Under the pieces are notes generated by a model. It was not told where the DNA came from. It did not search any database and saw only the letters and a program-made list of their open reading frames with translations. From assembly GCA_016708265.1 (NCBI GenBank), contig JADJGA010000003.1:776017-840016 (forward strand): a DNA stretch of 64,000 bases, in the 5' to 3' direction. This document shows positions 2,232 to 50,355 of this stretch, in pieces; position 1 is the stretch's first letter; each line of letters starts with the position of its first letter. The translations under genes and the position numbers were made by a program. This DNA is from Saprospiraceae bacterium. Lineage in GTDB: Bacteria; Bacteroidota; Bacteroidia; Chitinophagales; Saprospiraceae.

Positions 2232-4184
2232 ATGAGTTATCTCGAATTCGATAAGACAAAGTTAATAAATCTCTCATTTTCATTAAATCAGGAATTGCTC
2301 AGATCGAACAGGAGCGGTTCCTATTCATCTACAACTCTAATATTCTGTAATACAAGAAAATATCATGGCCTTTTAGTGACACCTCAACCGATGATCGATG
2401 ACGAATTGCACGTATTGGTGTCCGGGATTGACCCTACAATCATTCAGCATGATGCAGAATTCCATCTCGGTATTCACAGGTATCCCGGAGGAAAATATTC
2501 TCCGAAAGGGCATAAATATATGCGCGAAATAATAATTGATTCTATCCCCAAGATAGTTTACAGGGTAGGTGGTGTAGTTTTCTCAATAGAAAGTCTTTTT
2601 GCTTCCAGTGCCGACAGAATGCTGATAAAATATACAGTCGAAGAGTGCAATTCCCCGACAACAATAAGACTTCAGCCATTTCTTGCTTTCAGGCAAAGAC
2701 ACAGACTGAGCAAGGCAAATAATTTTATTGACAAGACATTTAAGCCATCTAATAATGGTGTCAATTTCAAATTGTATCAGGGCTATACTCCGGTTCATTT
2801 TCAGTTTTCAAAAAATACTGAATATGTGCACACACCGGACTGGTATTACAATATTGAATATGAAAAAGAAAGAAACCGGGGGTACGATTTCATGGAGGAC
2901 CTTTTTGTTCCCGGATTTTTTGAATTCGGCCTCAAAAAAGGAGAAAGCATAATTCTATCCTTAGGAACTGATGAAATAAACCCTGCAGGATTGTCGAGGA
3001 TGTTCAATAAAGAAAAAGAACTAAGGAAAAAACGCTTCGATTTTAAAAGTTCACTTGAAAATGCTGCAGATCAGTTCATTCAGAGACGTGATGGCAAGAC
3101 TGATATAATTGCCGGATATCCCTGGTTTGGTGTGTGGGGAAGAGATACATTTATTTCATTGCCCGGATTAACTTTGAGTACAGGCAGATTTGACATTGCC
3201 AAAGCTGTTCTGGATACCATGAGCAAAAGACTCAATGGTCCCTTATTCCCGAATGTCGGTACTGACAGTCAGGCTGCATTCAATTCCATTGATGCTCCGC
3301 TGTGGTATTTCTGGGCCGTTCAGCAATATGCCTATGAAACAGGAAATTTAGAAGCAGTCTGGAAAAGCTATGGTTCAAAAATGCTGGCAATACTTGAAGG
3401 ATATAAAAATGGTGCAGAGTACAATATCAAAATGCATGAAAATGGACTGATAAGCGGTGGTATTCAGGGAAAAGCACTAACCTGGATGGATGCTGTAACT
3501 GAGGGCAAAGCAGTTACACCCAGAATAGGTATGCCTGTCGAAATAAATGTGTTGTGGTTCAATGCGATAAGTTTTTATCTTGAGCTGGCTGAAAAATATG
3601 GTAAACAGAAAACCTTGACAGCATGGAAAGAAATACTTGAGAAGATCTCAAAATCATTTACTGAAACTTTCTGGGATGAGAATAAGGGATATCTCGCTGA
3701 TTATGTTGATGGTGAATACAAAAACTGGGATATACGGCCAAATATGATCTTTGCTGCTTCTCTCCCCTATAGTCCTGTTTCGGACTATATCAAGGCTGCA
3801 ATAGTGAATAAGGTAAAGGAGGAATTACTGACAGTCAGAGGCCTGAGAACATTGTCTCCAAGCAATCCCGAATATAAGGGAGTATATGAAGGAGATCAAA
3901 GCACCAGAGATAAAGCTTATCATCAGGGTACAGTATGGCCATGGCTTTTCGGACACTATGCCGAAGCATATCTGAAAATAAGAAAAAAAAGCGGCATTCA
4001 TAAAATGGAATGGTATCTTGAGCAATTTGAACAGACTATGTATGAACACGGTATAGGTACAATTTCAGAAATATTCGACGGTGATCCCCCTCATACTCCA
4101 AGAGGAGCCATATCACAGGCATGGAGTGTAGGTGAAATACTAAGAGTGATGAGTATCATTGAGAAAGTGAAAAGTGAAAAGTGA
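2232..4184 (+). CDS. Glycogen debranching enzyme (amylo-alpha-1,6-glucosidase, GDE_N + GDE_C)
   Basis: 650 aa; GDE_C-type motifs GYPWFGVWGRDTFISLPGL and (alpha/alpha)6 barrel region; syntenic with other alpha-glucan genes. Confidence 0.85.
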   Translation: MSYLEFDKTKLINLSFSLNQELLRSNRSGSYSSTTLIFCNTRKYHGLLVTPQPMIDDELHVLVSGIDPTIIQHDAEFHLGIHRYPGGKYSPKGHKYMREIIIDSIPKIVYRVGGVVFSIESLFASSADRMLIKYTVEECNSPTTIRLQPFLAFRQRHRLSKANNFIDKTFKPSNNGVNFKLYQGYTPVHFQFSKNTEYVHTPDWYYNIEYEKERNRGYDFMEDLFVPGFFEFGLKKGESIILSLGTDEINPAGLSRMFNKEKELRKKRFDFKSSLENAADQFIQRRDGKTDIIAGYPWFGVWGRDTFISLPGLTLSTGRFDIAKAVLDTMSKRLNGPLFPNVGTDSQAAFNSIDAPLWYFWAVQQYAYETGNLEAVWKSYGSKMLAILEGYKNGAEYNIKMHENGLISGGIQGKALTWMDAVTEGKAVTPRIGMPVEINVLWFNAISFYLELAEKYGKQKTLTAWKEILEKISKSFTETFWDENKGYLADYVDGEYKNWDIRPNMIFAASLPYSPVSDYIKAAIVNKVKEELLTVRGLRTLSPSNPEYKGVYEGDQSTRDKAYHQGTVWPWLFGHYAEAYLKIRKKSGIHKMEWYLEQFEQTMYEHGIGTISEIFDGDPPHTPRGAISQAWSVGEILRVMSIIEKVKSEK

Positions 4185-4350
4185 AAAGTGAATAATTGAA
4201 AATTGAAAATTTTGAGGCAAGTTGCAACAGTAGGCAATACAGTGAAGAGTGAAAAGTGAAGAGTGAAAAGTGAAAAGTGAAAAGTGAAAAGTGAAGAGTG
4301 AAGAGTGAAAAGTGAAGAGTGAAAAGTGAAGAGTGAAAAGTGAAGAGTGA
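4156..4350. repeat. Heptanucleotide microsatellite (GTGAARA)n, two blocks (4156-4190 and 4242-4350, about 16 units)
   Basis: Direct reading: gtgaaaagtgaaaagtgaaaag... and gtgaagagtgaaaagtgaagagtg...; overlaps the stop of the debranching enzyme and sits in the spacer to the next gene. Confidence 0.95.
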
Positions 4351-4590
4351 TAAGGTAGTAGACAACTGCAGGCAGAACTTACTGCTCAGTCATAAGTCGG
4401 GATTAAGTATACTTAAAACTGAAGACTGAAAATCTGCTGGGTTTTAACTTATAAATGATAGCTGATAATTGAAAAAATTTAGAAAAAAATAGTTTGCATG
4501 CTGATGAAACAGGAAAAATTTTATTTAAAATCCTGAAATCATCGGGAAGAATTAAAACACTGATCACAGATCACTGAAAAACTGAAAAAT

Positions 4591-5874
4591 ATGAAAGTAT
4601 TGATGTTCGGTTGGGAATTTCCGCCACATATCGCAGGAGGACTGGGCACTGCATGTTATGGCCTCGTAAAGGGTCTGATGAAAAGATCAGTCGATGTGAC
4701 ATTTGTAGTTCCAAAAGCCTTTGGTGATGAGGATAAGGATGTCAGGATCATAAATGCCAGCGATGTGACACTGAATATTTTCGATAAACATTTTATTGAT
4801 TTTCAGAAGAATCTTAAATATATGGAGATCAATTCAAGGTTGATACCATATCAGACTCCCGAAGAGTATTTCAGATTGCTGAATGCAGAGGAAAAAAGCA
4901 CAACCGAAGAAAATACATCGGTATTTTCAGCTTCCTATAAATTTGCTGGTGCTTATGGAAAAAATATCCTGGAAGAAGTTCAGCGATATGCCATGATAGC
5001 TGCAGAAATAGCAAACAAAGAACAATTTGATATCATTCATGCTCATGACTGGCTGACTTATGAAGCCGGAATTGCAGCAAAGAAAATAAGCGGGAAACCC
5101 CTGGTAGTGCATATACATGCCACTGAATTTGACAGGTCGGGAGAAAATGTAAATCAGATGGTATATGATATTGAGAGAAAAGGCATGGTAGCAGCCGACC
5201 GTGTAATTGCGGTCAGTCACCTTACCAGAAATATAGTTATAGACAGATATGGGATTGATCCTGAAAAAGTCAAAGTGGTGCATAATGCAGTTGAACCGGT
5301 TGAAAAAATGGATTTCTCGGAAGAGAAAAAAACTGTTGATGAAAAAATCGTAACATTTTTAGGAAGGATAACCTTCCAAAAAGGTCCGGAATATTTTGTC
5401 GAAGCATCAAATAAAGTGATGCAAAAAGACGGTAATGTCAGGTTTGTGATGGCCGGATCTGGAGATATGCTCGAAAAAATGGTTAAGAGGGTTGCCAAAG
5501 TCAGAATGGGAAATAAGTTTCACTTTACGGGTTTTCTTAAAGGCGATGATGTTGACAGGATGTTCGTATTGAGTGATGTCTATGTGATGCCCAGTGTCTC
5601 TGAACCTTTCGGTATCTCTCCGCTGGAAGCAATGAGATCAAATGTCCCAGTTATTATATCAAAGCAATCCGGGGTAGCTGAAGTTCTTAAATTCGCATTG
5701 AAAGTAGATTTCTGGGATGTGGATGCGATGGCAGATTATATTCATGCTCTGCTGCATTATGAGGGATTATCCAGGATGTTTATTAAATATGGTAAAGAAG
5801 AAGTTGATAATCTGAAGTGGGAAAATGCGGCAGTAAAAATTTCAGATATATATGAAAATACGTGTAGCATGTAA
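4591..5874 (+). CDS. Glycosyltransferase (GT4/GT5-like; possible alpha-glucan/glycogen synthase)
   Basis: N-terminal FPPHIAGGLGTACYGL resembles the KTGGL motif of GlgA-type synthases; GT-B fold E-x7-E region near the C-terminus; genomic context. Confidence 0.75.
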   Translation: MKVLMFGWEFPPHIAGGLGTACYGLVKGLMKRSVDVTFVVPKAFGDEDKDVRIINASDVTLNIFDKHFIDFQKNLKYMEINSRLIPYQTPEEYFRLLNAEEKSTTEENTSVFSASYKFAGAYGKNILEEVQRYAMIAAEIANKEQFDIIHAHDWLTYEAGIAAKKISGKPLVVHIHATEFDRSGENVNQMVYDIERKGMVAADRVIAVSHLTRNIVIDRYGIDPEKVKVVHNAVEPVEKMDFSEEKKTVDEKIVTFLGRITFQKGPEYFVEASNKVMQKDGNVRFVMAGSGDMLEKMVKRVAKVRMGNKFHFTGFLKGDDVDRMFVLSDVYVMPSVSEPFGISPLEAMRSNVPVIISKQSGVAEVLKFALKVDFWDVDAMADYIHALLHYEGLSRMFIKYGKEEVDNLKWENAAVKISDIYENTCSM

Positions 5875-6044
5875 GGTTTATGAAGGTTAAATTGTTTATG
5901 AGGTTTATAAAGTTTAGAAAGTTTAGAATGTTTAGAAGTAATAGTCAAACTGCAAATGATAATTTACGATCATACCTTTTCACCTTTCAGCCTAAAACTT
6001 TGCAACCATAAAAATAATTAAAAATAAATTAAAAAAATAGTGAT

Positions 6045-7247
6045 ATGAAATCCATTTGCTTATTTTTTCAGGTACATCAGCCATACAGATTGAGAAGATT
6101 CAGATTTTTTGATATCGGAAAAGAACCTGAATATTTTGATGATTTTCAGAATAATTATATATTGAAGAGAGTAGCAGAAAAATGCTATCTTCCTATGAAT
6201 AAGCTGCTCCTGGATCTTATAAAAGAATTCGGTTCACAGTTCAGGGTAAGTTTTTCAATTTCAGGTACTGCTATTGATCAGTTTGAGGAATACTATCCCG
6301 AAGTACTGGACAGCTTTAAGAAGCTTGCTAAAACCGGATCAGTAGAATTCCTTGCCGAGACAAACTCGCACTCACTGGCTTCACTGAAGAATAAGGAGGA
6401 ATTTTTTGCTCAGGTTAGTGCACACAAAGACAAAATCACAAAACTGTTTGGCAAAGCTCCGAAAGTATTCAGAAATACTGAAATGATCTATTCCGATGAG
6501 ATCGGGGCAATGGTAGCAGAAATGGGTTTCAGCGGGATGCTGACCGAAGGAGCCAAACATGTACTGGGCTGGAAATCTCCCAATTTCCTGTATACCAATG
6601 CTATCAATCCCAAACTGAAAATAATGCTGAGGAATTTCAGACTCAGTGACGATATTGCGTTCAGATTTTCAGAAAAAGGATGGAGTGAATGGCCACTTAC
6701 CGTAGAAAAATTTGTAGGATGGATGAAAGACCTGGGAAAAGATGAACAGGTGATCAATCTTTTCATGGATTATGAAACCTTTGGTGAACATCAGTGGGTT
6801 GATACCGGAATATTTGATTTCATGAAGGCACTTCCGGCAGAAGTATTCAAAAATTCGGATTTCACTTTCAATACTCCCGGAGAAATTATCGAAAAATACC
6901 AGCCAATATCAAAAATACATGTGCCCTATCCTATTTCATGGGCAGATGAAGAAAGAGACCTGACTGCATGGCTTGGGAATGAACTACAGGACGATGCTTT
7001 TGACAAATTATTTGAACTCGAACCACTTGTGAAAAAGTGTACTGATAAATCCATCAAAGAAAACTGGAGACACCTTCAGACAAGTGATCATTTCTACTAC
7101 ATGTGTACAAAATGGTTCTCGGACGGTGAGGTCCACAAGTATTTCAATCCCTATGGCTCACCATATGATGCATATATCAACTACATGAATGTACTTTCTG
7201 ATTTTGAGATAAGGGTGAAAAAATGCTCAGGGAAAAAGGGCAAATAG
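6045..7247 (+). CDS. Glycoside hydrolase family 57 protein (alpha-amylase/4-alpha-glucanotransferase type)
   Basis: N-terminal FFQVHQPYR motif typical of GH57; 400 aa; alpha-glucan gene context. Confidence 0.8.
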   Translation: MKSICLFFQVHQPYRLRRFRFFDIGKEPEYFDDFQNNYILKRVAEKCYLPMNKLLLDLIKEFGSQFRVSFSISGTAIDQFEEYYPEVLDSFKKLAKTGSVEFLAETNSHSLASLKNKEEFFAQVSAHKDKITKLFGKAPKVFRNTEMIYSDEIGAMVAEMGFSGMLTEGAKHVLGWKSPNFLYTNAINPKLKIMLRNFRLSDDIAFRFSEKGWSEWPLTVEKFVGWMKDLGKDEQVINLFMDYETFGEHQWVDTGIFDFMKALPAEVFKNSDFTFNTPGEIIEKYQPISKIHVPYPISWADEERDLTAWLGNELQDDAFDKLFELEPLVKKCTDKSIKENWRHLQTSDHFYYMCTKWFSDGEVHKYFNPYGSPYDAYINYMNVLSDFEIRVKKCSGKKGK

Positions 7248-9666: not shown

Positions 9667-10000
9667 CTTGATCGTCACGGTTTAAAACTGTGACGCACTA
9701 CGCTTTTCCAAAATAAAATTTTCCATCACTTACATTGATTATCAAATACAAATGTAAATAAATTCTCCTGGCAAATGCAATTTTTATTCTGAATTTTTAT
9801 GTATCAAGTTTGCAGCAAGAGGACAGAGCCTGTGCCGCATCTGCGGTAAGTCCTTTGCTGCGGAGAATGCTCTGTGATAAATCCCGAACAATTGTCGGGA
9901 CTGACCTCTTATCACAATGGCACTGCATTCCTTTGCTGCAAAGTACCGCTCCGTGATAAAGATCTTATCGGTACCATTTAAAACCATCCAACCCTGATAC
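9667..10000. repeat. Intergenic repeat, copy 2 (~330 bp; carries an ~80-bp internal insertion/duplication including a TCCCGAACAATTGTCGGGA hairpin)
   Basis: Aligns with copies 1 and 3; extra segment 9880-9960 is absent from the other copies. Confidence 0.9.
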
Positions 10001-10005
10001 CTTTC

Positions 10006-10043
10006 TATCTTAGTAAATCGTAATTCGTAATTGAAAATTCGTA
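10006..10043. repeat. Short tandem repeat (CGTAATTC-like units)
   Basis: aatcgtaattcgtaattgaaaattcgtaattcaaaacc read directly. Confidence 0.7.
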
Positions 10044-10052
10044 ATTCAAAAC

Positions 10053-26200: not shown

Positions 26201-26350
26201 AATTGATAAATCAAAACTTTATATTTTATATTTGAGTTTTATATTTTGAGTTTTTCATTTTCCAAATCCTCATCCCTCGACCAAAATTTTTCAAAATGTT
26301 GGATGATAATTTTATATTTTACATTTTGAGTTTTAAATTTTTCATTCACT
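26201..26350. repeat. AT-rich tandem micro-repeats (TATTTTGAGTTTT-like units)
   Basis: tatattttatatttgagttttatattttgagtttttcatttt ... tatattttacattttgagttttaaatttttcatt. Confidence 0.6.
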
Positions 26351-38522: not shown

Positions 38523-38596
38523 TGGAGCTAACGGGATTCGAACCCGTGACCCCTTGACTGCCAGTCAAGTACTCTAGCCAACTGAGCTATAGCCCC
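38523..38596 (-). tRNA. tRNA-Ala (anticodon GGC)
   Basis: Reverse complement ggggctatagctcagttggctagagta cttga-ctGGCag-tcaag ...ggttcgaatcc...tagctcca; G3:U70 alanine identity pair present; T-loop GTTCGAATC. Confidence 0.9.
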
Positions 38597-39419: not shown

Positions 39420-40334
39420 TCAGTTTTTTTTGACCAATCCCTTTTCTTCCAGGTCCCTTATCACTTTATCCATAACTCCGTTTATGAATTCTTTGCTTTT
39501 GTCGGTGGAATATTCCTTTGAGAGTTCTACATATTCATTTAATGTCACATTGCAAGGGATCGATTCAAAATATAAAACTTCAGCAAGGCTCATTTTAATA
39601 AATATCATATCGACATTTGCAATACGTTCTTTATCCCATTTCAATAGATTTGGAATAACATACTTTTCGAGTTCATCATTTATAGTAAGACATTTTTTTA
39701 ACAGTTTTTCCCCCAGATCAATGATCGTTTCGTCAGTAGGATAATAAGGTTCAATAAAATCTCCTTCAAAATCATTTCTTTTAAGAATTTTTTTGACTGT
39801 ACCTATTACCACCGATTTTTCACTGCTCCACTGATAGTACCTGTCATCGACCAGTTCAACAAAAACTTCACTCGCTCTGAGGTACCTGTACATTTCGAGG
39901 AGAATCTCTTCATCGTCTGTCTGAGATTTACGGTTGTGCCAGTAGGCAATATAAAGTTCGGTTTCAGAAAAACTCTTATACAATGTCCTGATGACATCAG
40001 GATCAATGAATTCACTGAATTTCAACGTTTCAAATCTTTGTTTGAGATCCTTGTTGTTTACAAGTCCTTTTATGATAGTGTTGTGATAAAGTGTGCTTTT
40101 AAATGATTTGTCATCATCTGTGGGGAGATACTTTGATACACGTTTGGTTTCGTCTTCTACTGAAACCTTAGTCATTTCAACTATTAGATATAAATTGAGT
40201 AGAAATAGCTCTATCGTACCCTTGACTGAATCATGATAAAACTTTAAAACTTCTTCATTCTTTAATTCTTTATCTCGGCTTTGAGAATAAAGAGCCTGCA
40301 TCACCTTTACTCTGATACTTCTTCTACTTAGCAT
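39420..40334 (-). CDS. nusB: Transcription antitermination factor NusB (long Bacteroidota-type form)
   Basis: N-terminus MLSRRSIRVKVMQALY and C-terminal NusB-domain motifs (DRIANVDMIFIKMSLAEVLYF...). Confidence 0.8.
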   Translation of the reverse strand: MLSRRSIRVKVMQALYSQSRDKELKNEEVLKFYHDSVKGTIELFLLNLYLIVEMTKVSVEDETKRVSKYLPTDDDKSFKSTLYHNTIIKGLVNNKDLKQRFETLKFSEFIDPDVIRTLYKSFSETELYIAYWHNRKSQTDDEEILLEMYRYLRASEVFVELVDDRYYQWSSEKSVVIGTVKKILKRNDFEGDFIEPYYPTDETIIDLGEKLLKKCLTINDELEKYVIPNLLKWDKERIANVDMIFIKMSLAEVLYFESIPCNVTLNEYVELSKEYSTDKSKEFINGVMDKVIRDLEEKGLVKKN

Positions 40335-40585
40335 GGGATTCCATTCTTTTTTACACTATGCAAAGAAAGTGTATTTTTTAAAACAAAACAAACAATGTCT
40401 GTATTTATTAACAATATTATACATATATCAATATTAAACGATCAAAAACGAATAAAGTGCCACATATTTCAAAAAAAAATTATTTACAAATTAAACACAA
40501 TTTTTTAAAATTAATTTTGTTTTTATAATACATTTCGTATTTTTGCGAAATATAAAAATGAATTTTATTTATAATTATTAATCAA

Positions 40586-40837
40586 TTGAAAATGGAAATT
40601 AAAATTTTAGGAACCGGATGTCAGAAATGCAAAACTCTGGAAAAAATGACACAGGAAGTCGTTGAAGAAAACAATTTTAATGCAACGATTACCAAAGTAG
40701 AAGATATAATGCTGATCATGAATTATGGCATTCTTTCAACTCCCGGCCTGGTAATAAATGAAAAAGTCGCTTTAAGTGGAAGATTACCTTCTAAAGATGA
40801 AATCAAAAAACATATTGAAAAATACGGCAATGAGTAG
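40586..40837 (+). CDS. Thioredoxin-family small redox protein (redox-active disulfide protein 2 / Thioredoxin_3)
   Basis: 78-83 aa; KILGTGCQKCKTLE CxxC motif. Confidence 0.8.
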   Translation: MKMEIKILGTGCQKCKTLEKMTQEVVEENNFNATITKVEDIMLIMNYGILSTPGLVINEKVALSGRLPSKDEIKKHIEKYGNE

Positions 40838-41138
40838 TTTCAGCAAATATGAGCCTGGCATTGAAGAGATTGCTGTAATAGCAAAGGCAATTCAGCATCC
40901 TGTGAGAGTGTATATCTTAAAGAAGCTCTCAAAGATGAATACATGTTGTTATAGTGGAAACCTTGTGGATGAATTGCCAATTAGTCGCAGCACCCTTTCT
41001 CAGCATTTGAAGGAATTAAAGTACGCAGGTCTGATACAAGGTGAAATAGAAGCACCATATATAAAATACTGCCTTAACAGGGAAAACTGGGAAAAAGCAA
41101 AGGAATTATTTTCAGAATTTTTTAATCTTTCAAAATAA
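40830..41138 (+). CDS. arsR: ArsR/SmtB-family transcriptional repressor
   Basis: HTH LSQHLKELKYAGLI; ATG at 40830 overlaps the upstream stop (ATGAGTAG); ORF track's longer N-terminus rejected. Confidence 0.8.
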   Translation: MSSFSKYEPGIEEIAVIAKAIQHPVRVYILKKLSKMNTCCYSGNLVDELPISRSTLSQHLKELKYAGLIQGEIEAPYIKYCLNRENWEKAKELFSEFFNLSK

Positions 41139-41150
41139 AAATAGTAGAAT

Positions 41151-41640
41151 ATGAAAAATCTATCAACAAAAATCGTCATTACAGTTGCAATTTTCTTTTA
41201 TGGAGGTCTGGCATTAAATGCATATATTGATGCAAACAATTCAAATCCCTTACTTAATGAAAATCCAATACAAAATTTTTCCAATGAAAATGTAAAGCAT
41301 GCTAAACCAATACTTTACATCTACAATTTTCATTCTACCAGGAGATGCATTTCCTGTGTTGCAATTGAGAATACAACTACTCAGGCATTGGAAAAGTATT
41401 TTAAAAAGAAGTTGAAGAAGGCAGGATCAAAAGATTTATTATCAATGTAGAGGAAAAGGAAAATAAAAAACTGGTTGAAAAATATGAGGTATATGGAACA
41501 GCACTGTATCTGGTAAGATCATTCAAGGGTAAAGAAAACACAATAGACCTTACTGCAGAGGGATTCAAATATGCTAAAAACAAGCCGGAAAAATTATTGG
41601 AAGTACTGAAGGAAAAAATTTCAGAGAATTTAAAATAAGC
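41151..41640 (+). pseudogene. Secreted CxxC-motif protein of unknown family, copy 1 (frameshifted near 41440)
   Basis: Signal peptide; YIYNFHSTRRCISCVAIE motif; continues out of frame as ...KLVEKYEVYGTALYLV... paralleling copy 2. Confidence 0.45.
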
Positions 41641-41664
41641 TGATAATTAAAAAAAGATAAACCT

Positions 41665-42101
41665 ATGAATAAAAGTATTTTCATTATGCTGATATTGTTT
41701 TTATACAATTATGCATCTTTTAGTCAGACAGTTGGTGATACAATAATTTCAAATAATCCCCAAAATCTTAAGCTAAAAGTTTATTATTTTCACATTACAG
41801 ACAGATGTTCTGCATGCTATTCAATTGAAGAGAATCTCAGAGCTACTCTTTTCACTAATTTCAAAAAGGAAATAAAAAAGGGATCGTCGATCTTCATATC
41901 CTCAACTGTGAATTGCCGGAAAACCAAAAGCTGGTAAAAAAATATACTGCTTATGGCTCAACTTTGGTAGTGACAGGATATAAAAATGGCAAAGAACTCG
42001 AAACTGAAGAATTGTCAGCCTGGGCTTTTAAAAAATCAGGGAACAAAAAGGTTTTTGTTAAAGAGCTTAGGAAAAAACTAAATGATCATCTGAGATCATA
42101 A
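41665..42101 (+). pseudogene. Secreted CxxC-motif protein of unknown family, copy 2 (frameshifted near 41925)
   Basis: Signal peptide; YYFHITDRCSACYSIEE; second part KLVKKYTAYGSTLVV in overlapping ORF 41913..42101. Confidence 0.45.
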
Positions 42102-42131
42102 TTAAAATTACAATTTTTAAGGTTAAAAATT

Positions 42132-42833
42132 ATGGAATATTTACAAAATTTGCTTGATAATACAAGCATGCCATTGTTTTCTGCATTCCTGCTTGGGTTG
42201 ATGACAGCTATCAGTCCATGTCCTCTTGCGACAAATATAACTGCAATAGCCTACATCGGTAAAAATATCGAGAATAAGAGAAAAGTATTTATTAATGGTT
42301 TGTTTTATACGCTGGGAAGAGCTATCAGTTATGTTACCATAGGTATTATTCTATTTTTCGGAGCCAGTAAGTTTCATATTGCCAGTTTTTTTCAATCAAA
42401 CGGAGAAAAATTCCTGGGTCCTTTGCTTATCATTATCGGTATTTTTATGCTGGGTGTTTTCAAATTCAATTTCCCGGGTATTGGCAAAATAACTGATAAA
42501 TTTAATCAGATGAAGACAAACCGGCTAAGTTCACTTTTGATGGGGATGCTTTTTGCACTTGCGTTTTGTCCATATAGTGGAGTTTTGTATTTTGGCATGC
42601 TCATTCCTATGACTATTTCAAGTACATCAGGACTTTTCCTGCCTTTTGTATTTGCAATTGCAACAGGCCTCCCGGTTATTGTCTTTGCATATCTGATTGC
42701 ATTTACCTTTTCGGAAGTTGGCAGTTTTTTCAACAAACTCAAAACATTTGAAAAATGGTTCAGAAAAATAGTTGCATTTGTATTCATTGCTGTTGGGATA
42801 TATTATATGTATATTTTTTTCTTTTCAAATTAA
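42132..42833 (+). CDS. CcdA/DsbD_2-like thiol:disulfide interchange membrane protein
   Basis: 6 TM; AISPCPLATN-type Cys-Pro signature of the DsbD/CcdA transmembrane electron-transfer family. Confidence 0.7.
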   Translation: MEYLQNLLDNTSMPLFSAFLLGLMTAISPCPLATNITAIAYIGKNIENKRKVFINGLFYTLGRAISYVTIGIILFFGASKFHIASFFQSNGEKFLGPLLIIIGIFMLGVFKFNFPGIGKITDKFNQMKTNRLSSLLMGMLFALAFCPYSGVLYFGMLIPMTISSTSGLFLPFVFAIATGLPVIVFAYLIAFTFSEVGSFFNKLKTFEKWFRKIVAFVFIAVGIYYMYIFFFSN

Positions 42834-42844
42834 TTTAGGTCAAC

Positions 42845-43264
42845 ATGGAAAACAGACTTAAAGTTCTTATCCTTTGTACAGGAAATTCATGCAGGAGCCA
42901 GATGGCACACGGATTTTTACAATCTTTTAATAGAAATCTTGATGTTCATTCTGCCGGCACTAAAGCATCAGGTTATATTAATGAAAAAGCGATAGTTGTG
43001 ATGAAAGAAGTCGGAATTGATATCAGTACTCATACATCTGATCCTGTTGAAAAGTATCTGAATGAAGAATGGGATTATGTGATCACTGTGTGTGGAGGTG
43101 CTAATGAAGAATGTCCAGTTTTCCATGGAATAGTTAAGAACAGGCTTCACATGGGATTTGATGACCCCAGCCATGCAATTGGAACTGAAGAATTTATCTG
43201 GAGTGAATTCCGGAGAGTAAGAGATAAGATTTGGAAGGAATTTGCTAATTTGCTAATTTGCTAA
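42845..43264 (+). CDS. arsC: Arsenate reductase, LMW-PTP family (thioredoxin-coupled ArsC)
   Basis: KVLILCTGNSCRSQMA P-loop (CX5R) at the N-terminus; 139 aa. Confidence 0.85.
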   Translation: MENRLKVLILCTGNSCRSQMAHGFLQSFNRNLDVHSAGTKASGYINEKAIVVMKEVGIDISTHTSDPVEKYLNEEWDYVITVCGGANEECPVFHGIVKNRLHMGFDDPSHAIGTEEFIWSEFRRVRDKIWKEFANLLIC

Positions 43265-43365
43265 TTTGAAAATGTACTAATATGAGAATTAGATAATGTG
43301 TTAATTTGGTATTTTGCTAATTAACTATTTCTCACATTTGCTAATTTGTTAATTAATATAAGGTA
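43245..43365. repeat. AATTTGCTAATT tandem array and relatives (left flank of a four-helix-bundle gene)
   Basis: gaatttgctaatttgctaatttgctaatttgaaaatg...tttctcacatttgctaatttgttaatt. Confidence 0.85.
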
Positions 43366-43368
43366 AAT

Positions 43369-43656
43369 ATGTTGGATGAAAAGGGAAATGTGATTGTTGA
43401 AAAAAGCTTTGGATTTGCTTTACGAATTATTGAGTTTACAGAATTACTTGAAAGTCAGAGAAAATATGTTATTGCAAATCAATTATTGAAAAGTGGGACT
43501 TCAATTGGTGCAAATATCAGAGAAGCACAGAATGCTGAAAGCAAAGCTGATTTCATACACAAAATGAAAATTGCTGGTAAAGAAGCCGATGAAACTGAAT
43601 ATTGGTTACTACTATGTAAATTTTCAAAAACTCATCCATTCGATGAAAACATATAG
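43369..43656 (+). CDS. Four-helix-bundle protein (TIGR02436; '23S rRNA intervening-sequence protein' family)
   Basis: Family-typical FGFALRII.F...ANQLLKSGTSIGANI.EAQ...S..DFIHKM.IA.KEA.ET.YWL. Confidence 0.8.
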   Translation: MLDEKGNVIVEKSFGFALRIIEFTELLESQRKYVIANQLLKSGTSIGANIREAQNAESKADFIHKMKIAGKEADETEYWLLLCKFSKTHPFDENI

Positions 43657-43689
43657 AATGATTTAAGTGAAATAAAGAAAATACTTAAT

Positions 43690-43885
43690 AAAATAATCGC
43701 ATCTTCAAAAAAGAGAATGTGAAAATGTGAGAATTCGAGAATGTGAGAATTCGAGAATGATTGAATGTGTCCCGAAAGCTTTCGGGATCGAGAATGTGAC
43801 AATGTGGTAATTTGCTAATTAATAAATTCTCACATTTACAAATTAATTTGCTAATTAACTAATTTGCTAATTAACTAAATAAAAA
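43690..43885. repeat. GAGAATGTGAGAATTC / AATTTGCTAATTAAC repeat arrays plus TCCCGAAAGCTTTCGGGA hairpin (right flank of a four-helix-bundle gene)
   Basis: Read directly; hairpin at 43770-43787. Confidence 0.85.
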
Positions 43886-43888
43886 ACT

Positions 43889-44925
43889 ATGCCATCTCAA
43901 AAAAAATTAAAATTTCTGGACAGATATCTTACTTTGTGGATATTCTTAGCCATGTTTGCAGGAGTATTTTTGGGCTGGTTAAGTCCTGACATTGCCGGAT
44001 TCTGGAATAAACTTTCATCTGGTACTACAAATATACCGATTGCAATCGGTTTGATAGTGATGATGTATCCACCACTCGCAAAAGTCAAATATGAAGAACT
44101 TGGAGATGTTTTTAGAAACACTAAAATCCTGGGATTATCTCTGGTACAGAACTGGATAATCGGACCAATTCTTATGTTTCTCCTTGCTATTGTATTTTTA
44201 CGTTTTAATGTAGATTACATGTATGGCCTGATTCTTATCGGGTTGGCCCGGTGCATTGCAATGGTAATAGTTTGGAATGATCTTGCTAAAGGTGACACAG
44301 AATATGCTGCCGGACTTGTAGCATTTAATTCAATATTTCAGGTTTTGTTTTTTTCTGTTTATGCTTACATTTTTATTGCTGTTTTGCCCGGTTGGTTTGG
44401 ATTGCCTGTAAATGATGTGGTTGCAAATATTACAATCGGACAGATAGCTGAGAGTGTTTTTATTTATCTGGGCATTCCCTTTATAGCAGGATTTTGACAA
44501 GATATTTATTGGTTAAAGCAAAAGGAAAGGATTGGTATAATAAAAAATTCATTCCTGCAATCAGTCCGCTTACTCTATATGCATTGCTTTTCACAATATT
44601 CGTGATGTTCTCACTCAAAGGTGAACTCATAGTAAAAATACCATTTGATGTTATCAGAATTGCTATTCCTCTTATAATTTATTTTGTATGTATGTTTGTA
44701 TTATCTTTCTTATGAGTAAAAGATTCGGGGCGAATTACAAACAATCAACAACTCTGTCTTTACAGCTGCCAGCAATAATTTCGAACTTGCAATAGCGGTG
44801 GCAATTTCAGTTTTGGCATTAATTCAGGTGAAGCATTTACTGCTGTGATCGGCCCTTTGGTTGAGGTGCCTGTGATGATAGCTTTGGTCAGTCTTGCATT
44901 TTGGTTTAAGAGAAAGCTGTTTTAA
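43889..44925 (+). pseudogene. acr3: ACR3-family arsenite efflux transporter, split into three frames (shifts near 44495 and 44715)
   Basis: N-terminus [13 protein letters not shown]...[14 protein letters not shown] and C-terminus ...[26 protein letters not shown] are ACR3 hallmarks; ORFs 43889..44497, 44494..44715 and the 44716-44925 frame are contiguous. Confidence 0.7.
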
Positions 44926-44942
44926 TGTGATAATTTGAAAAT

Positions 44943-45318
44943 TTGAAAATGTGCCAATGTGTCATTGAGATAATGTGCCAATTTGAAAATTTGAAAATTA
45001 TAAAAATAATTGAGTTTACAGAAACACTTGAAAATCAAAGAAAATATGTTCTTGCAAATCAATTATTGAAAAGTGGGACTTCAATAGGTGCAAATATCAG
45101 AGGAGCACAGAATGCCGAAAGCAAAGCTGATTTCATACATAAAATGAAAATTGCAGCAAAAGAAGGAGATGAAACTGAATAGTGGTTATTACTATTCAAG
45201 TTTTCAAAAGTACTTCTATTCGATGAAAGCATCCTGAATGAATTGAGTGAAATAAACAAAATACTAAATAAAATAATCGTATCATCAAAAAGAGAATTTG
45301 AGAATGTGTTAATTTGCT
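44943..45318 (+). pseudogene. Second, degenerate four-helix-bundle gene copy (in-frame stop after ...KEGDETE, then frame change)
   Basis: IEFTETLENQRKYVLANQLLKSGTSIGANIRGAQNAESKADFIHKMKIAAKEGDETE* ~90% identical to 43369..43656; flanked by the same repeat types (44925-45000, 45290-45375). Confidence 0.7.
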
Positions 45319-45376
45319 AATTATCACATTTGCTAATTTGCTAATTCTCACATTGGCTAATTAACTAATTAATAAT

Positions 45377-46720
45377 ATGGAAACAAAAAAAGAACTAAAA
45401 ATCCTGGTCTGGATTGGAATAATATTTGGTGCAGCATTCTTTTTACCTATTGAAAGTGCAAGGTTTAACACTGCAATTGCTGCAACATTGGATCTTGTGA
45501 AATGGTATGCCCGTGAGCATGTGATTTTATGCTTATTACCTGCTTTTTTTTTATTGCAGGGTTATCTCGGTATTTGTGAGTCAGGGTTCAATTTTGAGAT
45601 ACTTTGGAGCAAACGCAAAAAAATGGCTGGCTTACACAGTTGCTGCCAGCTCAGGAACTATTCTGGCAGTATGCAGTTGCACTATTTTGCCATTGTTCTC
45701 AAGCATTCACAAGAGAGGAGCAGGATTAGGACCGGCTATTGCCTTTCTATATTCTGGTCCCGCAATAAATATACTTGCCATCATTTTAACGGCAAGGATA
45801 CTCGGATTGCAAATGGGTATAGCCAGGACTATTGGTGCTGTATCTTTCAGTGTAATAATCGGATTGATAATGGCATTTATTTACCGAAAAGAAGAGAAAG
45901 TTAAAAAGGAAGAACAGATGAACATTCAGTTACCTGCTGAAAAGCGTCCGATGTGGCAAACTTCATTTCACTTTTTACACTTGTTTTGATACTTGTATTT
46001 GCAAACTGGGGAAAGCCATCCATAGATGACACATCAAGTGCCTGGTATTATTTATGGGCATACAAATGGTACATTACCGGATTTTTTTCATTGATGCTAG
46101 GCTTTTCACTAATTTATGTGCTAAAAATAAAATGGCAGTGGGTTTTGATGGCAGCATTTGCGACAATTGCTTCAGCGATATTAGCAACAAATCTTATTGA
46201 AAACTCAAAACTGGCACCACTTTTTCCGATGATGGTTGGGATAGCAGGTTTGAGTATTATTACGCTTTTGGACAAACAGGATGATGAAAACCGGGAATGG
46301 ACAATTTCAACCTGGGGTTTTGCAAAGCAAATTCTGCCATTGCTGGCAATAGGAGTTGTAACAGCCGGATTCCTGCTAGGATCAACACATGATGGTCAAA
46401 CAATTGCCGGAGTGATACCAAATGAATGGATACAATGGCTTGTGGGTGGCAATTCAGTTTTTTCCAATTTATTTGCATCAGTTGTCGGGGCATTTATGTA
46501 TTTTGCAACCCTTACAGAAGTTCCCATTCTTCAGGGGCTGATTGCATCCGGTATGGGAAAAGGCCCTGCTTTGGCTTTATTACTTGCCGGCCCATCACTT
46601 TCCCTTCCAAATATGCTTGTTATACAAAATGTTTTGGGAACTCAGAAGACAGTTGTTTATGTGACCCTGGTAGTGGCAATGGCAACAATTTCAGGTATGT
46701 TTACGGATGGCTATAACTAA
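45377..46720 (+). pseudogene. ArsP-like / DUF318 permease, split into three frames (shift at T10 run ~45545 and at T5 ~45985)
   Basis: Hallmark ILAVCSCTILPLF (TxCSC motif) in the second frame; N-terminal and C-terminal halves are permease-like TM segments in adjacent frames. Confidence 0.6.
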
Positions 46721-46735
46721 AAAGTTTAAACTTAT

Positions 46736-49700
46736 TTACTGATCTATAATTATACAATTTCCTTTGATTTCGACTGAACTTCCTTCGTTGCTAATTATTG
46801 CCGGATTTGTTGAACCCTGATAATTATGTAATACAACATTATCCAGTATCAGTTTGCCATTATTTTCAATAGCTCCTGCATTTAACCCTGCAGAATGGAT
46901 ATGAACACCCTTTAAAATCAGTCCATCACCGGTTGAGGGTGCTGAATTTTGGATAGTTGATCCTGTACCATTTGAGAATATGTGAATATTTTTAGTTAAA
47001 TCACTTTCAATCACAACATGTTTATTTATAACCAGATTTTCATTTCCGAGAAAAATGGTATCATTAATTATTGAAGAATTAAATCTGATAGTATCACCGG
47101 TAGTTGAACAATTGATTGCAGCATAAAAGAGACCTGCACCTTGAGGATATGTATTATCCACTTTCAGTCTGCAGAAATTATTTAAGCAGGTTTTAATTTT
47201 CCATGTTTGAAGACTGCCTCCATCATTGGTTGCAAGATCTTGGATCTGAAGTCTCCACTGACCTTTGACCTGTTGATTATTGAAAGTTAATAATGTATTG
47301 GAAGGTTTATATGTTCCCCCATCAGTAGGGGGGCACTGAATATCTAAATTTGCAGATTGGTCAAAATTGATATTGAAATTATCATTACTTCCACATTTCC
47401 GATCCATAATTACAACATTCACATTTGAGGGAGTATATAATGTAAATTTCAGATCACCTATATAAGTATGTAAACCAGTTAGACTTAAAACATCAAGGTC
47501 GTTTATTATTCCTAAGTCTGTAATGGGCAGATAAGAATTGACTGTTGGAGTTCCTGACGGTGAAATAATTACAGGAACATCTATACTATTATAAACAAAA
47601 CATGATTCAGTAACAAAGGAAAAAAATGCTGACCAATTGCCATTTCCGCAGGGTGAAATTGGTTTTACCCTCCAGTAAAATGTTGAAAGACCTTCAAGCA
47701 TCTGAGAGACTTGCAAGTTATTGGTAGCAGAATTCGTATTTACTATTAAAGTACTGAAGTCTGAAATTCGGGATATCTGTATTTCATAATATGCCGCACC
47801 TGCTATTGTATTCCAGCTTAATTGAGGTTTTATGCTTATGTTTGTCGAGTTATTGGCAGGAGATAATAGTGTAATAGATGACGCAGCAACATCAGTTACA
47901 ATCAAACTTAACATCGAATTCTTTACTGTAGATCCGGATGTACCAATGACCTGAATATTGTAAGAACCTGAAATGCCATCAATATTTGAAATTGTCAGGA
48001 TACTGCTTTGCCCTGGAATAACCGGATTATTTGAAAAACTATAGTTTACTCCCGAAGGTAGTCCTGCAACGCTTAAAGTTACCGGTTGACTGAATCCCAA
48101 AATACTCAATACATTCACAGCAATGTCTCCACTCTGTTGCGGACAAAGCATAAGTGACGCCGGATCTAATTGCAGACTAAATGATGGAACTCCTGTATTA
48201 ATTGTAATATTTGCATTATTGATATCAAAGAAAATATTGTCTACAGCTTTGACCATAATCCTTACAGTGGAGCTTATCCCTACAGGCACAACAATTTCCT
48301 GAGAACCATCATTAGGAGTTGAACTTAGCAAAGTTACAGGAAAGGTATTGCCACCATCATAAGATAAAAGTATACTTACATTTACAGTATTAATACCATT
48401 AGCTGTTGTTCCTGCTACATCCCATGTTATTGCTTTAGTTTCTCCTTCCAGCCAGGTGGTTGCATAATTTTGAGATGTTATTACAAATGGGCCTGCAGCA
48501 CTCCACAGTTGTAACAGTACGATTTATTTCCGAATTGCAACCCGCTACTCCTGTAAAATCGCGTGCAACGCCCCTGAAGTTCATGGTTCTTGAAACCGAT
48601 GGAAGAACCTGCCAGGTATTAGTTGTATTATTAAGAATATTCGCTAATGGAGGAAAATACCTCGATGGTGAAGTAGTGGCAAAAATACTTCGAAACATAG
48701 GACCTGTTGTATTGGTAGAAACTGGAGGCATTGTCTGAGCAGGAGAAACATAGCTGTTCATTTGATCCCAGTCATAGGAAATGGGATTGCCATCAGGATC
48801 TGAAGCATTTAACGTTAAAACAAATGGGGTAGATTTTGGTATAGTGTAATTTGGTTGTGCGGTAACATTTGGAGCATTATTTGCAAAAGTGCCAACTATT
48901 TGTGCACAACCATTTCCTGAACCTGTCAGAAATGTTTTAATTTCCTGGAGACTTTTGGCATGAAAATAAGGGTCGCTGTTAGTTTGAACATCGGGACTGC
49001 AAATTCCTGCATATGCCATAATTGTTGAAGCACTTCCTGGTTCCATAGCTGTACTGGCATTCCTGTTGCAGTTATTGTATTGCAAGTATGGTTTGCATTA
49101 AACTGATGTCCCATCTCATGAGTGACATAATCAATTACTAAAAGGATCTCCAACCGGGGTTGGAGAGCCTGTAAACCTCCTGCCTTATTATCAGTACTCA
49201 CAAACACACCCTAAATATGCAATTCCTCCATCTCCAGTACTAAAAACATGGCCAATATCGAAATTGGCTGATCCTATTACATTAGTACAATTATTTTGAT
49301 TTGCTGTTAAGTCACTAGATGAACCATCATTAGTATAACCATCGGTAGCAGCATTATAATAAAAAACCAGATTAGTATTTGCAATCAAAACAAGTCTTAC
49401 GGCAAGTTCTGATTCATATACTTCATTTACGCGATTAATAACTGTCACAACTGCAGACATCACAAGTCCTGATTGAGCAGAACTTGTAGCCCCAAAAAAA
49501 TTGCTGTATTCTCCAGTTGTTGCCTGAGCAAGCCTGTAACTCTTAACTGGCAATCCCCAATTCTTAGACATCATCGTTTTCCCTGGTTTGTCATTGAATC
49601 ATCATTGACAAAACATTCCCATCAACCTTTTTTGAATTCTTTTTTTGAATAAACAATTCTTATTTGTTTATCATCTCTTTGAAAATAATCAATATAATAT

Positions 49701-50149
49701 TTTCCTTCATCCAAAGAGGAAATGACAGCCCTGAACCCCTGCAAAGTATAATCTATTCTGATGCTTTTTAACTGATCTGAAATCGAAACACCATAAAATG
49801 TTCTTATATCGGGATATTGCAGAGCCAATTCAGGTTCCATCATATAGTATTCTACAACTTTGAATTTTTCAGTCTTGCCATCCGGCAATCCAACATTGAT
49901 TATCTGATCAGAATTTGCAACATCTTTCTCCGATTCTTTTGGCGAACTCCACAGAATAGTTTTCATCATTTCGTCATCAAAATTGTAAATGACATACTTT
50001 TCGGGAATGATATCCCTGATGCCTTTATTTTCAATCTGATCCAAAGAAACAACGTTCCATGATTGACTGAATAAAATAGAAAACTGAAAAAATGCCAGAA
50101 AAAACAGAAAAAATCTTTTACCCATAAAGTCCCATTTTAAAAAATGCAA
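46736..50149 (-). pseudogene. Secreted reprolysin-like (metzincin) zinc metalloprotease with FN3-like and proprotein-convertase P-domains. Fragmented into at least five ORFs (49622..50149, 49191..49574, 48926..49207, 48435..49085, 46736..48331)
   Basis: Signal peptide (MGKRFFLFFLAFFQFSILFSQ); HEMGHQFNANH zinc-binding HExxHxxxxxH; IMAYAGICS reprolysin_5-like segment; P-domain segment GDLKFTLYTPSNVNVVIMDRKCGSNDNF...WRLQIQD. Confidence 0.55.
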
Positions 50150-50355
50150 AAATAGAAATTCAATTGTTTATCTTGTAAAAATTGGCCTGAAAATCAATTA
50201 TAAAAAATTATATTTTTAATTGAAAAACGAAACAGGATTTTTAAATACAAAAGTAATTGAATATCAACATAAATATTTTAATGATGCATCAATAGATCAA
50301 AATGTTGATTTTAGAAGATGAATTCTTTATATGACTCAAACATTTTTAAACAATA

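Follow-up and report, generated by a model that had tools for sequence, protein, structure and literature searches.

The nearest known relative of the element described here is the intervening sequence (IVS) of 23S rRNA that carries an S23p open reading frame (ORF). In Coxiella, this ORF lies within a 28-bp terminal inverted-repeat stem that is cut by RNase III, a variable number of tandem GACAGAT heptamers precedes it, and the ORF itself is decay-prone and probably not expressed (PMC4990558). We analyzed a 64,000-nucleotide stretch from a Saprospiraceae bacterium (assembly GCA_016708265.1, contig JADJGA010000003.1, positions 776,017 to 840,016; GC content 35%; hereafter the window), in which two four-helix-bundle (4HB) genes of the S23p family PF05635 occupy spacers of an arsenic (ars) operon. 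On balance, we think it probable that these genes are ageing copies of an intercistronic cassette common in Bacteroidota, in which a 4HB gene sits between hairpin arms whose pairing would loop out the cistron.

Several other described systems share parts of this anatomy. Cyanobacterial short tandemly repeated repetitive (STRR) sequences consist of tandem 7–8-nt units in intergenic spacers. The repetitive extragenic palindromic (REP) sequences associated with RAYT proteins are conserved within a genome, and RAYT is a Y1 transposase of known chemistry. Heptamer arrays of the unit TAACTGA occur in Beggiatoaceae, Cyanobacteria, and five Bacteroidetes, as direct repeats only, and binding by S1, Csp, or CsrA has been proposed for them; that work reports neither inverted pairing nor a link to a 4HB gene (PMC4679880). 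Avd, an accessory protein of diversity-generating retroelements (DGRs), is a homologous four-helix bundle that acts with nucleic acid (PMC10053308). Our literature searches found no description of a 4HB gene between tandem-repeat arms and nothing that connects 4HB genes with STRR or heptamer repeats, and the hairpin-armed architecture is apparently both widespread and undescribed.

Close relatives of the window's genes are numerous, with more than 8000 matches. For a gene-first sample, we searched metagenome contigs using aligned close homologues as the query and kept the best 80 loci, at 60–77% identity. Almost every 4HB gene is preceded by an array of direct units and followed by an array of reverse-complement units. 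The cassette consists of a PF05635 ORF of roughly 350 nt (S23p/Avd-like) between arms of tandem 7–8-nt units, which in this clade are AATKTGNN on the 5′ side and their reverse complement on the 3′ side. We aligned each 5′ flank locally with the reverse complement of the 3′ flank, taking the 99th percentile of shuffles as the threshold; this strict alignment was used instead of RNAduplex energies, which gave too much noise for 160-nt flanks, AT-rich sequence having a very negative baseline. Complementary arms were detected at 92% of 76 4HB loci, compared to 3% of 159 control genes drawn from those loci. The median alignment score was 20.5, with 8.0 for shuffled flanks and 12.0 for the flanks of other loci (p = 1e-14). 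Inverted repeats of the IVS type thus bound the S23p-like ORF family-wide (92% of the 76 loci); the stems in the window itself are weak.

The arms turn over quickly, and units vary from locus to locus (aatttgaa, aatgtgcc, gatttgat, aatgtgct, and others). Within a locus, the two arms share their units (weighted Jaccard index 0.25, versus 0.00 with the arms of other loci; p about 1e-20), and rare units are repeated in the partner arm at 15 of 40 loci, where permutation gives 2.3. The median arm length is 35 nt, and the outer ends lie 6 nt past the upstream stop codon and 7 nt ahead of the downstream ATG. Cassettes have the same orientation as the upstream gene in 67 cases and the opposite one in 4; for the downstream gene, the ratio is 61:9.

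The same junctions recur as cassette sites: scoA|scoB (13 loci), leuC|leuD (5), arsM|acr3 (4), arsC|acr3 (4), and arsC|arsM (3). 4HB proteins group by context, with 29 of 39 nearest neighbors sharing it versus 6.4 after permutation, which points to mostly vertical inheritance with occasional moves. The median dN/dS (ratio of nonsynonymous to synonymous divergence) over 24 pairs is 0.07, a value of purifying selection that argues for a functional 4HB protein in most lineages. From one cassette context to another, neither leader nor trailer sequence is conserved. More distant relatives on viral contigs (38–57% identity) have the same layout, built from other units of period 7 or 8 (TAATGAG, CAATTGA, GTAATTC, and AATTTGTA).

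Two divergent 4HB genes, at 1161–1457 of L129 and 2640–2972 of L135, have arms of GACGACG/GACAACA heptamers and of TAACTGTT/TAATTGTT. In L129, a GACAGAA stands just before the ATG and resembles the GACAGAT/GACAGAA upstream of the Coxiella IVS S23p ORF.

Both window genes belong to this family. As the original prediction had proposed, they lie in the arsC–acr3 and acr3–arsP spacers, and the profiles PF05635 and TIGR02436 match each of them. Copy 1 (43369–43656) scores 79.8 bits with PF05635 (E = 2.1e-22) and 86.4 bits with TIGR02436 (E = 1.4e-24); copy 2 (about 44997–45301) scores 53.5 bits (E = 3.2e-14) and 61 bits (E = 1.1e-16), the cut-offs being 33.8 and 24 bits. The two share 82% identity across 78 residues, and a profile of close relatives matches a family member of solved structure, PDB 2RLD (E = 3.3e-33). 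Both fall short of the full length of about 115–120 residues and are family members by descent, in truncated or pseudogene form.

Operons of relatives were found by exact-protein look-up in three other assemblies (L001, L002, and L003), and these allowed the decay of each copy to be read. The ancestral frame of copy 1 (43369–43722, + strand) has 117 codons and runs to a TGA (43720–43722) that falls inside the first downstream repeat unit; a premature TAG (43654–43656) now stands at codon 96. The gene had been taken as intact, a description that does not hold, since close relatives are all 117 codons long. Copy 1 is 95% identical in nucleotide sequence to the intact L001 copy. Two substitutions separate its TAG from the CTG of the L001 orthologue, so a read error is unlikely. 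Copy 2 (44997–45301, + strand) is a pseudogene that lacks about 17 N-terminal codons and has a TAG at 45180–45182 and a 1-nt deletion near its 3′ end. The earlier description of this copy as degenerate with an internal stop was correct; its proposed extent of 44943–45318 was not, as the ORF start at 44943 lies inside an array. Copy 2 reads as an intermediate stage of gene loss, and copy 1 as a gene that has lost its last 21 codons through the stop. TAG reassignment was considered for the in-frame TAGs and is unlikely; the thioredoxin, arsR, DsbD_2, and arsC ORFs are uninterrupted.

The spacers around both copies are almost pure period-8 arrays of the unit AATNTGNN (aatttgct, aatttgaa, aatgtgag, aatgtgcc, and so on). 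Tandem Repeats Finder (TRF) delimits six such arrays, at 43239–43354 (14.5 copies), 43713–43759, 43851–43882, 44924–44998, 45295–45346, and 45357–45376, and all four flanks of the two genes have period 8, in agreement with the arrays predicted on both sides of each copy. These intergenic arrays of 7–8-nt units are present in several copies and exceed chance: AATTTGCTAATT, with at most one mismatch, occurs 13 times in the 64 kb, 12 of them in these flanks (expected 2.55 ± 1.67), and GAGAATGTGAGAAT, with at most two mismatches, has 12 matches, 10 of them in these flanks (expected 0.79). The arrays begin within or at the preceding gene's stop codon, and the right flanks finish in ...taattaacta(a), 5–11 nt ahead of the next ATG, much as had been noted.

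In cassette 1, the 5′ array (43239–43356, + strand) has about 14 octamers (aatttgct, aatttgaa, aatgtact, and others). It extends over the final 8 codons of arsC and its stop (43262–43264) and pairs with 43852–43871, both as inverted pair I13 and in the RNA fold. On the 3′ side of copy 1 lies a nested gene-less hairpin (43713–43844, + strand), whose arms AATGTGAAAATGTGAGAATT (43716–43735) and AATTCTCACATTTACAAATT (43825–43844) are 90% complementary (inverted pairs I9 and I12). Its loop contains a perfect 18-bp palindrome, TCCCGAAAGCTTTCGGGA (43770–43787; inverted pair I23), which is conserved in L001. The 3′ array (43788–43886, + strand) continues with gagaatgt, gacaatgt, ggtaattt, gctaatt..., and then taattaactaa; its A-rich tail included, it ends 2 nt ahead of the acr3 ATG at 43889. 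In cassette 2, the 5′ array (44924–44998, + strand; aatgtgat, aatttgaa, aatgtgcc, and others) begins within the acr3 stop codon, adjoins about codon 18 of the gene remnant, and pairs at 90% with 45311–45330 (inverted pair I11). The 3′ array (45292–45376, + strand) combines direct units (aatttgct) with inverted ones (atcacatt, ctcacattggc) and extends to the arsP ATG at 45377.

The last units ahead of acr3 and arsP (43844–43886 and 45357–45376; likewise in L001 and L002) are TAATTAACTAATTAA and present a stop codon in all three frames. A stop triplet within any 7- or 8-nt unit shows in every frame inside three units. A GC-rich hairpin of the form (G)TCCCGA-N(2-10)-TCGGGA(C) was also seen, in the window at 9883, 36699, 36841, and 43771 and in other Bacteroidota loci, namely L025 (5776 and 6270), L086 (6681), and L090 (1816 and 2962). 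It was rejected as a general cassette part, with only 4 of 21 such hairpins near octamer arrays, and could represent a small repeat in its own right or a hairpin of the terminator type.

The cassettes share several features with S23p IVSs, such as those of Coxiella burnetii and Leptospira. In both, a PF05635 ORF lies in the loop of a long terminal-inverted-repeat stem, short tandem repeats of variable copy number stand beside it, the ORF is prone to decay, and the element sits inside a host transcript in the same orientation. There are also differences. An IVS is located in helix 25 or 45 of 23S rRNA, whereas the cassettes occupy spacers of protein-coding operons; the window's genes lie between arsC, acr3, and arsP, and Rfam gives no rRNA in the window. 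The cassette arms are themselves tandem arrays of 7–8-nt units that abut stop and start codons, and most cassette ORFs are under strong purifying selection. Finally, cleavage by RNase III is known for the IVS and conjectural for the cassettes.

Comparison with the relatives' operons also clarifies the history of the two copies. L001 (Saprospiraceae JADJGA01) has an intact copy 1 of 117 aa, and its acr3–arsP spacer is an 88 bp octamer array without a gene. In L002, both copies are intact at 117 aa, and L003 carries an intact copy 2. When aligned, the L001 acr3–arsP spacer corresponds to the left array of window cassette 2 joined to the right array, with the junction within repeat units; no target duplication is seen at this empty site. 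The array-only spacer in L001 against the intact copy in L002 and L003 bears out the proposal that gene and flanks behave as one unit that is gained or lost whole. Similar presence/absence polymorphism separates L119 from L177, L009 from L186, and L014 from L136.

The suggestion that the element had inserted twice into the operon overstates how recent the events are, as both positions are orthologous in relatives and the five Saprospiraceae copies form one clade, apart from other ars-associated 4HB genes. Because these five copies are monophyletic, the second copy is best seen as an old local duplication that predates the divergence of the sampled genomes. Since the window, L002, and L003 all hold copy 2, the state of L001 is most simply a loss, one that left the arrays behind. 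We would reconstruct this history as follows. One cassette would have been copied into the second ars spacer before the sampled Saprospiraceae genomes diverged. The arms in this lineage would then have drifted to the nearly self-complementary AATTTGCTAATT, so that both flanks now resemble direct repeats, and slippage or recombination between the flanking arrays may remove the 4HB gene, leaving an array-only spacer as in L001.

A number of results count against our preferred explanation, the weakness of the window's own stems among them. In the RNA fold of a canonical cassette, L125, the ORF is enclosed by paired arrays (z = −5.4). The arms in the window are more degenerate: closure of cassette 1 by its outer arrays is weak (z = −2.1, with only 20 shuffles), and the fold of cassette 2 is no better than shuffles (z = −0.6), with one good pair between 44924–44943 and 45311–45330 (90%). 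The flanks of copy 1 score 30 as direct repeats and 14.5 as inverted ones. Cassette 1 can close even as its flanks look direct because AATTTGCTAATT is self-complementary apart from one T·T. Among arm mismatches, G·U pairs are not in excess over A·C (110 versus 119); a DNA-level origin of the arm complementarity is therefore equally possible, and the test lends no support to RNA-level selection. On the same side of the balance, neither conserved ends of the element nor a target duplication nor a recombinase came to light, and the sole ORF between the arms is the 4HB gene, with no transposase or recombinase beside it. A comparison with miniature inverted-repeat transposable elements (MITEs) and other small non-autonomous transposons runs along the same lines. 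Inverted termini, gene-less forms that outnumber gene-bearing ones, and presence/absence polymorphism are common to both, whereas the cassettes lack a transposase, conserved ends, and observed target-site duplications, and their copies are diverged rather than near-identical.

A further counterweight comes from arrays that have no gene. A search of one genome per species for runs of four AATKTGNN units gave at least 120 loci, almost all in Bacteroidota; the counts that follow are among the matches listed. A 4HB gene is absent from 119 of 120 loci, the sole exception being L040, in an ars operon. We searched for 4HB genes beside the arrays with the clade hidden Markov model (HMM), a relaxed HMM (E < 10), and Pfam on 150 nearby small ORFs; neither the relaxed HMM nor Pfam revealed a divergent, hidden 4HB gene other than that of L040. 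The neighbors are ordinary genes encoding ribosomal proteins, ATP synthase subunits, and nuo subunits, and the frequencies of the arrays in convergent, divergent, and co-directional spacers match the background. A reverse-complement array lies 3′ of 73 of the 134 arrays and 5′ of 8, with a median loop of 52 nt, indicating that gene-less array hairpins of fixed polarity are common. Their 5′ arm begins a median of 8.5 nt past a stop codon and their 3′ arm is about 70 nt from the next ATG; being near the upstream stop and not the downstream start, they may be a host feature. It had been argued that flanking repeats found as often without 4HB genes as with them would be independent micro-repeats. 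Taken literally, this condition applies, gene-less arrays being far commoner than those with a gene, but nearly every 4HB gene has arms, which makes the arrays more than unrelated micro-repeats.

Two further observations concern these loci. In the gene-less hairpins of L004–L123, the 5′ arm is made of AATKTG units and the 3′ arm of CAMATT units, a strict polarity that a plain hairpin would not need. In L009, a 349-bp spacer without a gene (6470–6823) strings together three kinds of array: octamers AATGTGCT/AATTTGAA, GTGACTG heptamers, and units of TACTTGTTC; its relative L186 holds a cassette at that junction.

These data lend some weight to a reading in which the arrays and hairpins are an independent, phylum-wide intergenic feature of the host, long simple-sequence repeats acting as 3′-end hairpins or as RNA-stability or translational elements. 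The 4HB genes would be passengers that have homed to or settled in their loops, comparable to S23p ORFs in extended rRNA helices, and the arms would be host sequence rather than ends of an element. We regard it as the alternative that must be taken most seriously, if a rather unlikely one. The abundance of gene-less arrays, their short-loop hairpins of fixed polarity, their presence in operons for ribosomal proteins, ATP synthase, and nuo subunits, their background frequency in every class of intergenic spacer, and the position of the gene-less 5′ arm just past stop codons all speak for it. Arms that vary among loci and match within a locus look as if each cassette had adopted local arms, and array-only hairpins are found at junctions where relatives hold a cassette (L119/L177, L009/L186, and L014/L136). 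Intergenic heptamer arrays of Bacteroidetes, Cyanobacteria, and Beggiatoaceae have likewise been described without a link to a gene (PMC4679880). Those arrays and the ones here share tandem 7–8-nt units that fill spacers and often end a few nt ahead of a start codon, copy numbers that differ among relatives, and a presence in ribosomal-protein operons; the unit here differs in being the octamer AATKTGNN. What a purely host-derived repeat leaves unexplained is the presence of complementary arms at 92% of 4HB genes and 3% of other genes, as well as the different units and periods around distant 4HB subfamilies. In the ars operon, parsimony also favors gene loss and not gain, as the outgroups L002 and L003 and the window have copy 2.

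A different possibility is that the array units are bound by the 4HB protein, solved relatives of which are pentameric rings, and that this protein drives or sustains array spread, in the manner of REP doublets forming hairpins (REPINs) and their RAYT partners. Gene-bearing cassettes would then be autonomous and the gene-less hairpins their non-autonomous derivatives. The two systems show the same asymmetry: one small gene, nearly always flanked by inverted repeats, and a repeat that is far more common elsewhere without the gene. The 4HB gene is also the only gene of the element and is under strong purifying selection, unit type and period shift with the 4HB subfamily, and the homologue Avd acts with nucleic acid in DGRs (PMC10053308). 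Against these parallels, the flanked gene here is PF05635 and not a Y1 (IS200/IS605-like) transposase, units vary by locus and differ widely among proteins that are 60–77% identical, and arrays are at background frequency in every intergenic class. Moreover, we know of no catalytic chemistry for the 4HB fold. Unlike Avd, the window's genes have no reverse transcriptase, template repeat, or variable repeat nearby. We consider this mode of spread improbable.

The original prediction had a mobile element whose flanks stack sigma-A −7/−33 elements and donate outward promoters to acr3 and arsP. The arrays are indeed rich in TTTG, the downstream arrays are direct in this lineage and finish just ahead of the next ATG, and presence/absence polymorphism exists. 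The proposed TAATTTG box, with seven bases, is one base short of the eight-base TAnnTTTG. Exact TAnnTTTG occurs 109 times in the window (expected 92) and not once in the four arrays, which are therefore not stacked −7 boxes. Among 74 related cassettes, none has a TAnnTTTG directed at the next gene within 120 nt downstream of the 4HB gene, and one has it within 120 nt upstream, compared to 6.0 ± 2.5 in shuffled flanks. 3′ arms are normally inverted; because they are the reverse complement of the 5′ arm, their TTTG motifs point back into the cassette and not outward. About half of the units are AATGTG and lack TTTG altogether. Gene-less arrays also occur in convergent spacers at background frequency.

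In the Bacteroides promoter consensus, the −33 and −7 motifs are offset by roughly 27–29 bp, which an 8-bp TTTG spacing does not fit. A sigma-70 promoter and terminator scan of the region returned sites no more common than in shuffles; sigma-70 is not the relevant promoter type. Near the operon, exact matches to TAnnTTTG are limited to TAATTTTG at 40512 and TATTTTTG at 40538 (40512–40545, + strand); these lie 40–70 nt upstream of the thioredoxin gene (40586), the first of the operon, and are a candidate for its real promoter. Judged from sequence, the arrays are not promoters and should not be annotated as such, and we see very little chance that the element is a donor of outward promoters. 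Overall, what the original prediction observed largely stands, its view of an element holds in half, and its promoter view fails.

That assembly or sequencing errors in an error-prone region of low complexity produced the arrangement, as might be suggested by the many homopolymer frameshifts in acr3, arsP, and a reprolysin-like gene, has a negligible probability, because the same arrangement recurs in three independent related assemblies and about 80 unrelated metagenome contigs.

The operon itself is conventional. On the + strand, the thioredoxin gene (start 40586) and arsR (HTH_5; start 40776) are followed by two small ORFs, a DsbD_2 membrane protein gene (42132–42833), and arsC (LMWPc, a thioredoxin-type arsenate reductase supported by profile matches; 42845–43264), the upstream neighbor of cassette 1. 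acr3 (SBF family; 43889 to about 44925) is split into several ORFs, and the arsP-type permease gene (ArsP_1; 45377–46720), the downstream neighbor of cassette 2, has a frame broken by homopolymer indels. HTH_5, LMWPc, SBF, and ArsP_1 are all present in one orientation, and L001 and L002 share the order. A fragmented reprolysin-like gene of 1136 aa follows on the − strand (46736–50150). Relative to L001, the breaks in acr3 are four 1-nt deletions in T runs, and those in acr3 and arsP together are 1-nt indels, mostly in homopolymer runs. Such breaks mark an error-prone assembly, and the frameshifts there are therefore no sign of pseudogenization; they are probably sequencing errors.

Synonymous divergence (dS) between the window (39420–46720) and L001 is uneven, with values of 0.21 for thioredoxin, 1.49 for arsR, 0.43 for DsbD_2, 0.53 for arsC, 0.19 for the 4HB gene, 0.65 for acr3, 2.0 for arsP, and 1.27 for nusB, a mosaic that suggests recombination between lineages. 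As a check for transfer specific to the 4HB gene, the value of 0.19 for copy 1 falls at the low end of an operon range of 0.19–2.0, and thioredoxin is equally low. Rfam gave no RNA family at E ≤ 1 within 40000–47000; a single tRNA gene (38523–38596, − strand) was its sole match in the whole window.

The window contains other short-period arrays that have neither a 4HB gene nor an inverted partner, at 4143–4354, 5872–5939, 10013–10051, and 26218–26346. Their units are AAAGTGA (about 25 copies), a 9-mer, GTAATTC, and a 7/14-mer; GTAATTC also flanks distant 4HB relatives on the viral contigs L215 and L218. Between 7428 and 12071, three paralogous units, each about 2.2 kb long, follow one another in tandem, every one closing with a conserved segment of about 215–290 nt (96% and 73% identity) and then a (AACCTTCC)n array.

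Returning to the hairpin-armed cassette, its shared orientation with the operon and the lack of a −7 box of its own make it most likely that it is transcribed within the operon mRNA. Pairing of the arms, whether as RNA or as single-stranded DNA, could then confine the 4HB cistron to a loop and would bring the flanking stop and start codons together. By analogy with the S23p-bearing IVS, the stem might be cut by RNase III; alternatively, it might couple translation of the flanking genes. Gain and loss of the cassette would proceed through recombination or slippage in the arrays.

We also entertain, as a speculative extension, a broader scheme in which PF05635 genes and short tandem arrays are a single overlooked system in Bacteroidota and their phages, and possibly in Cyanobacteria and Proteobacteria. 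The 4HB pentamer would recognize the units, the array hairpins in operons would be non-autonomous derivatives or landing pads, and the S23p-bearing rRNA IVS would be a special case of a general hairpin-loop cassette able to reside in any transcribed spacer. If this were true, both the S23p family and the long-unexplained STRR-type heptamer and octamer repeats would gain a function and an origin.

These results give genes annotated merely as "four helix bundle protein" in Bacteroidota operons a fixed, quantifiable architecture that bridges a stop and a start codon. They connect three poorly understood subjects, namely S23p/Avd-like proteins, the IVSs of 23S rRNA, and tandem repeats of 7–8 nt in intergenic spacers, and they account for spacer-length polymorphism in operons such as ars, sco, and leu. 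They also make the question testable in cultivable Bacteroidota.

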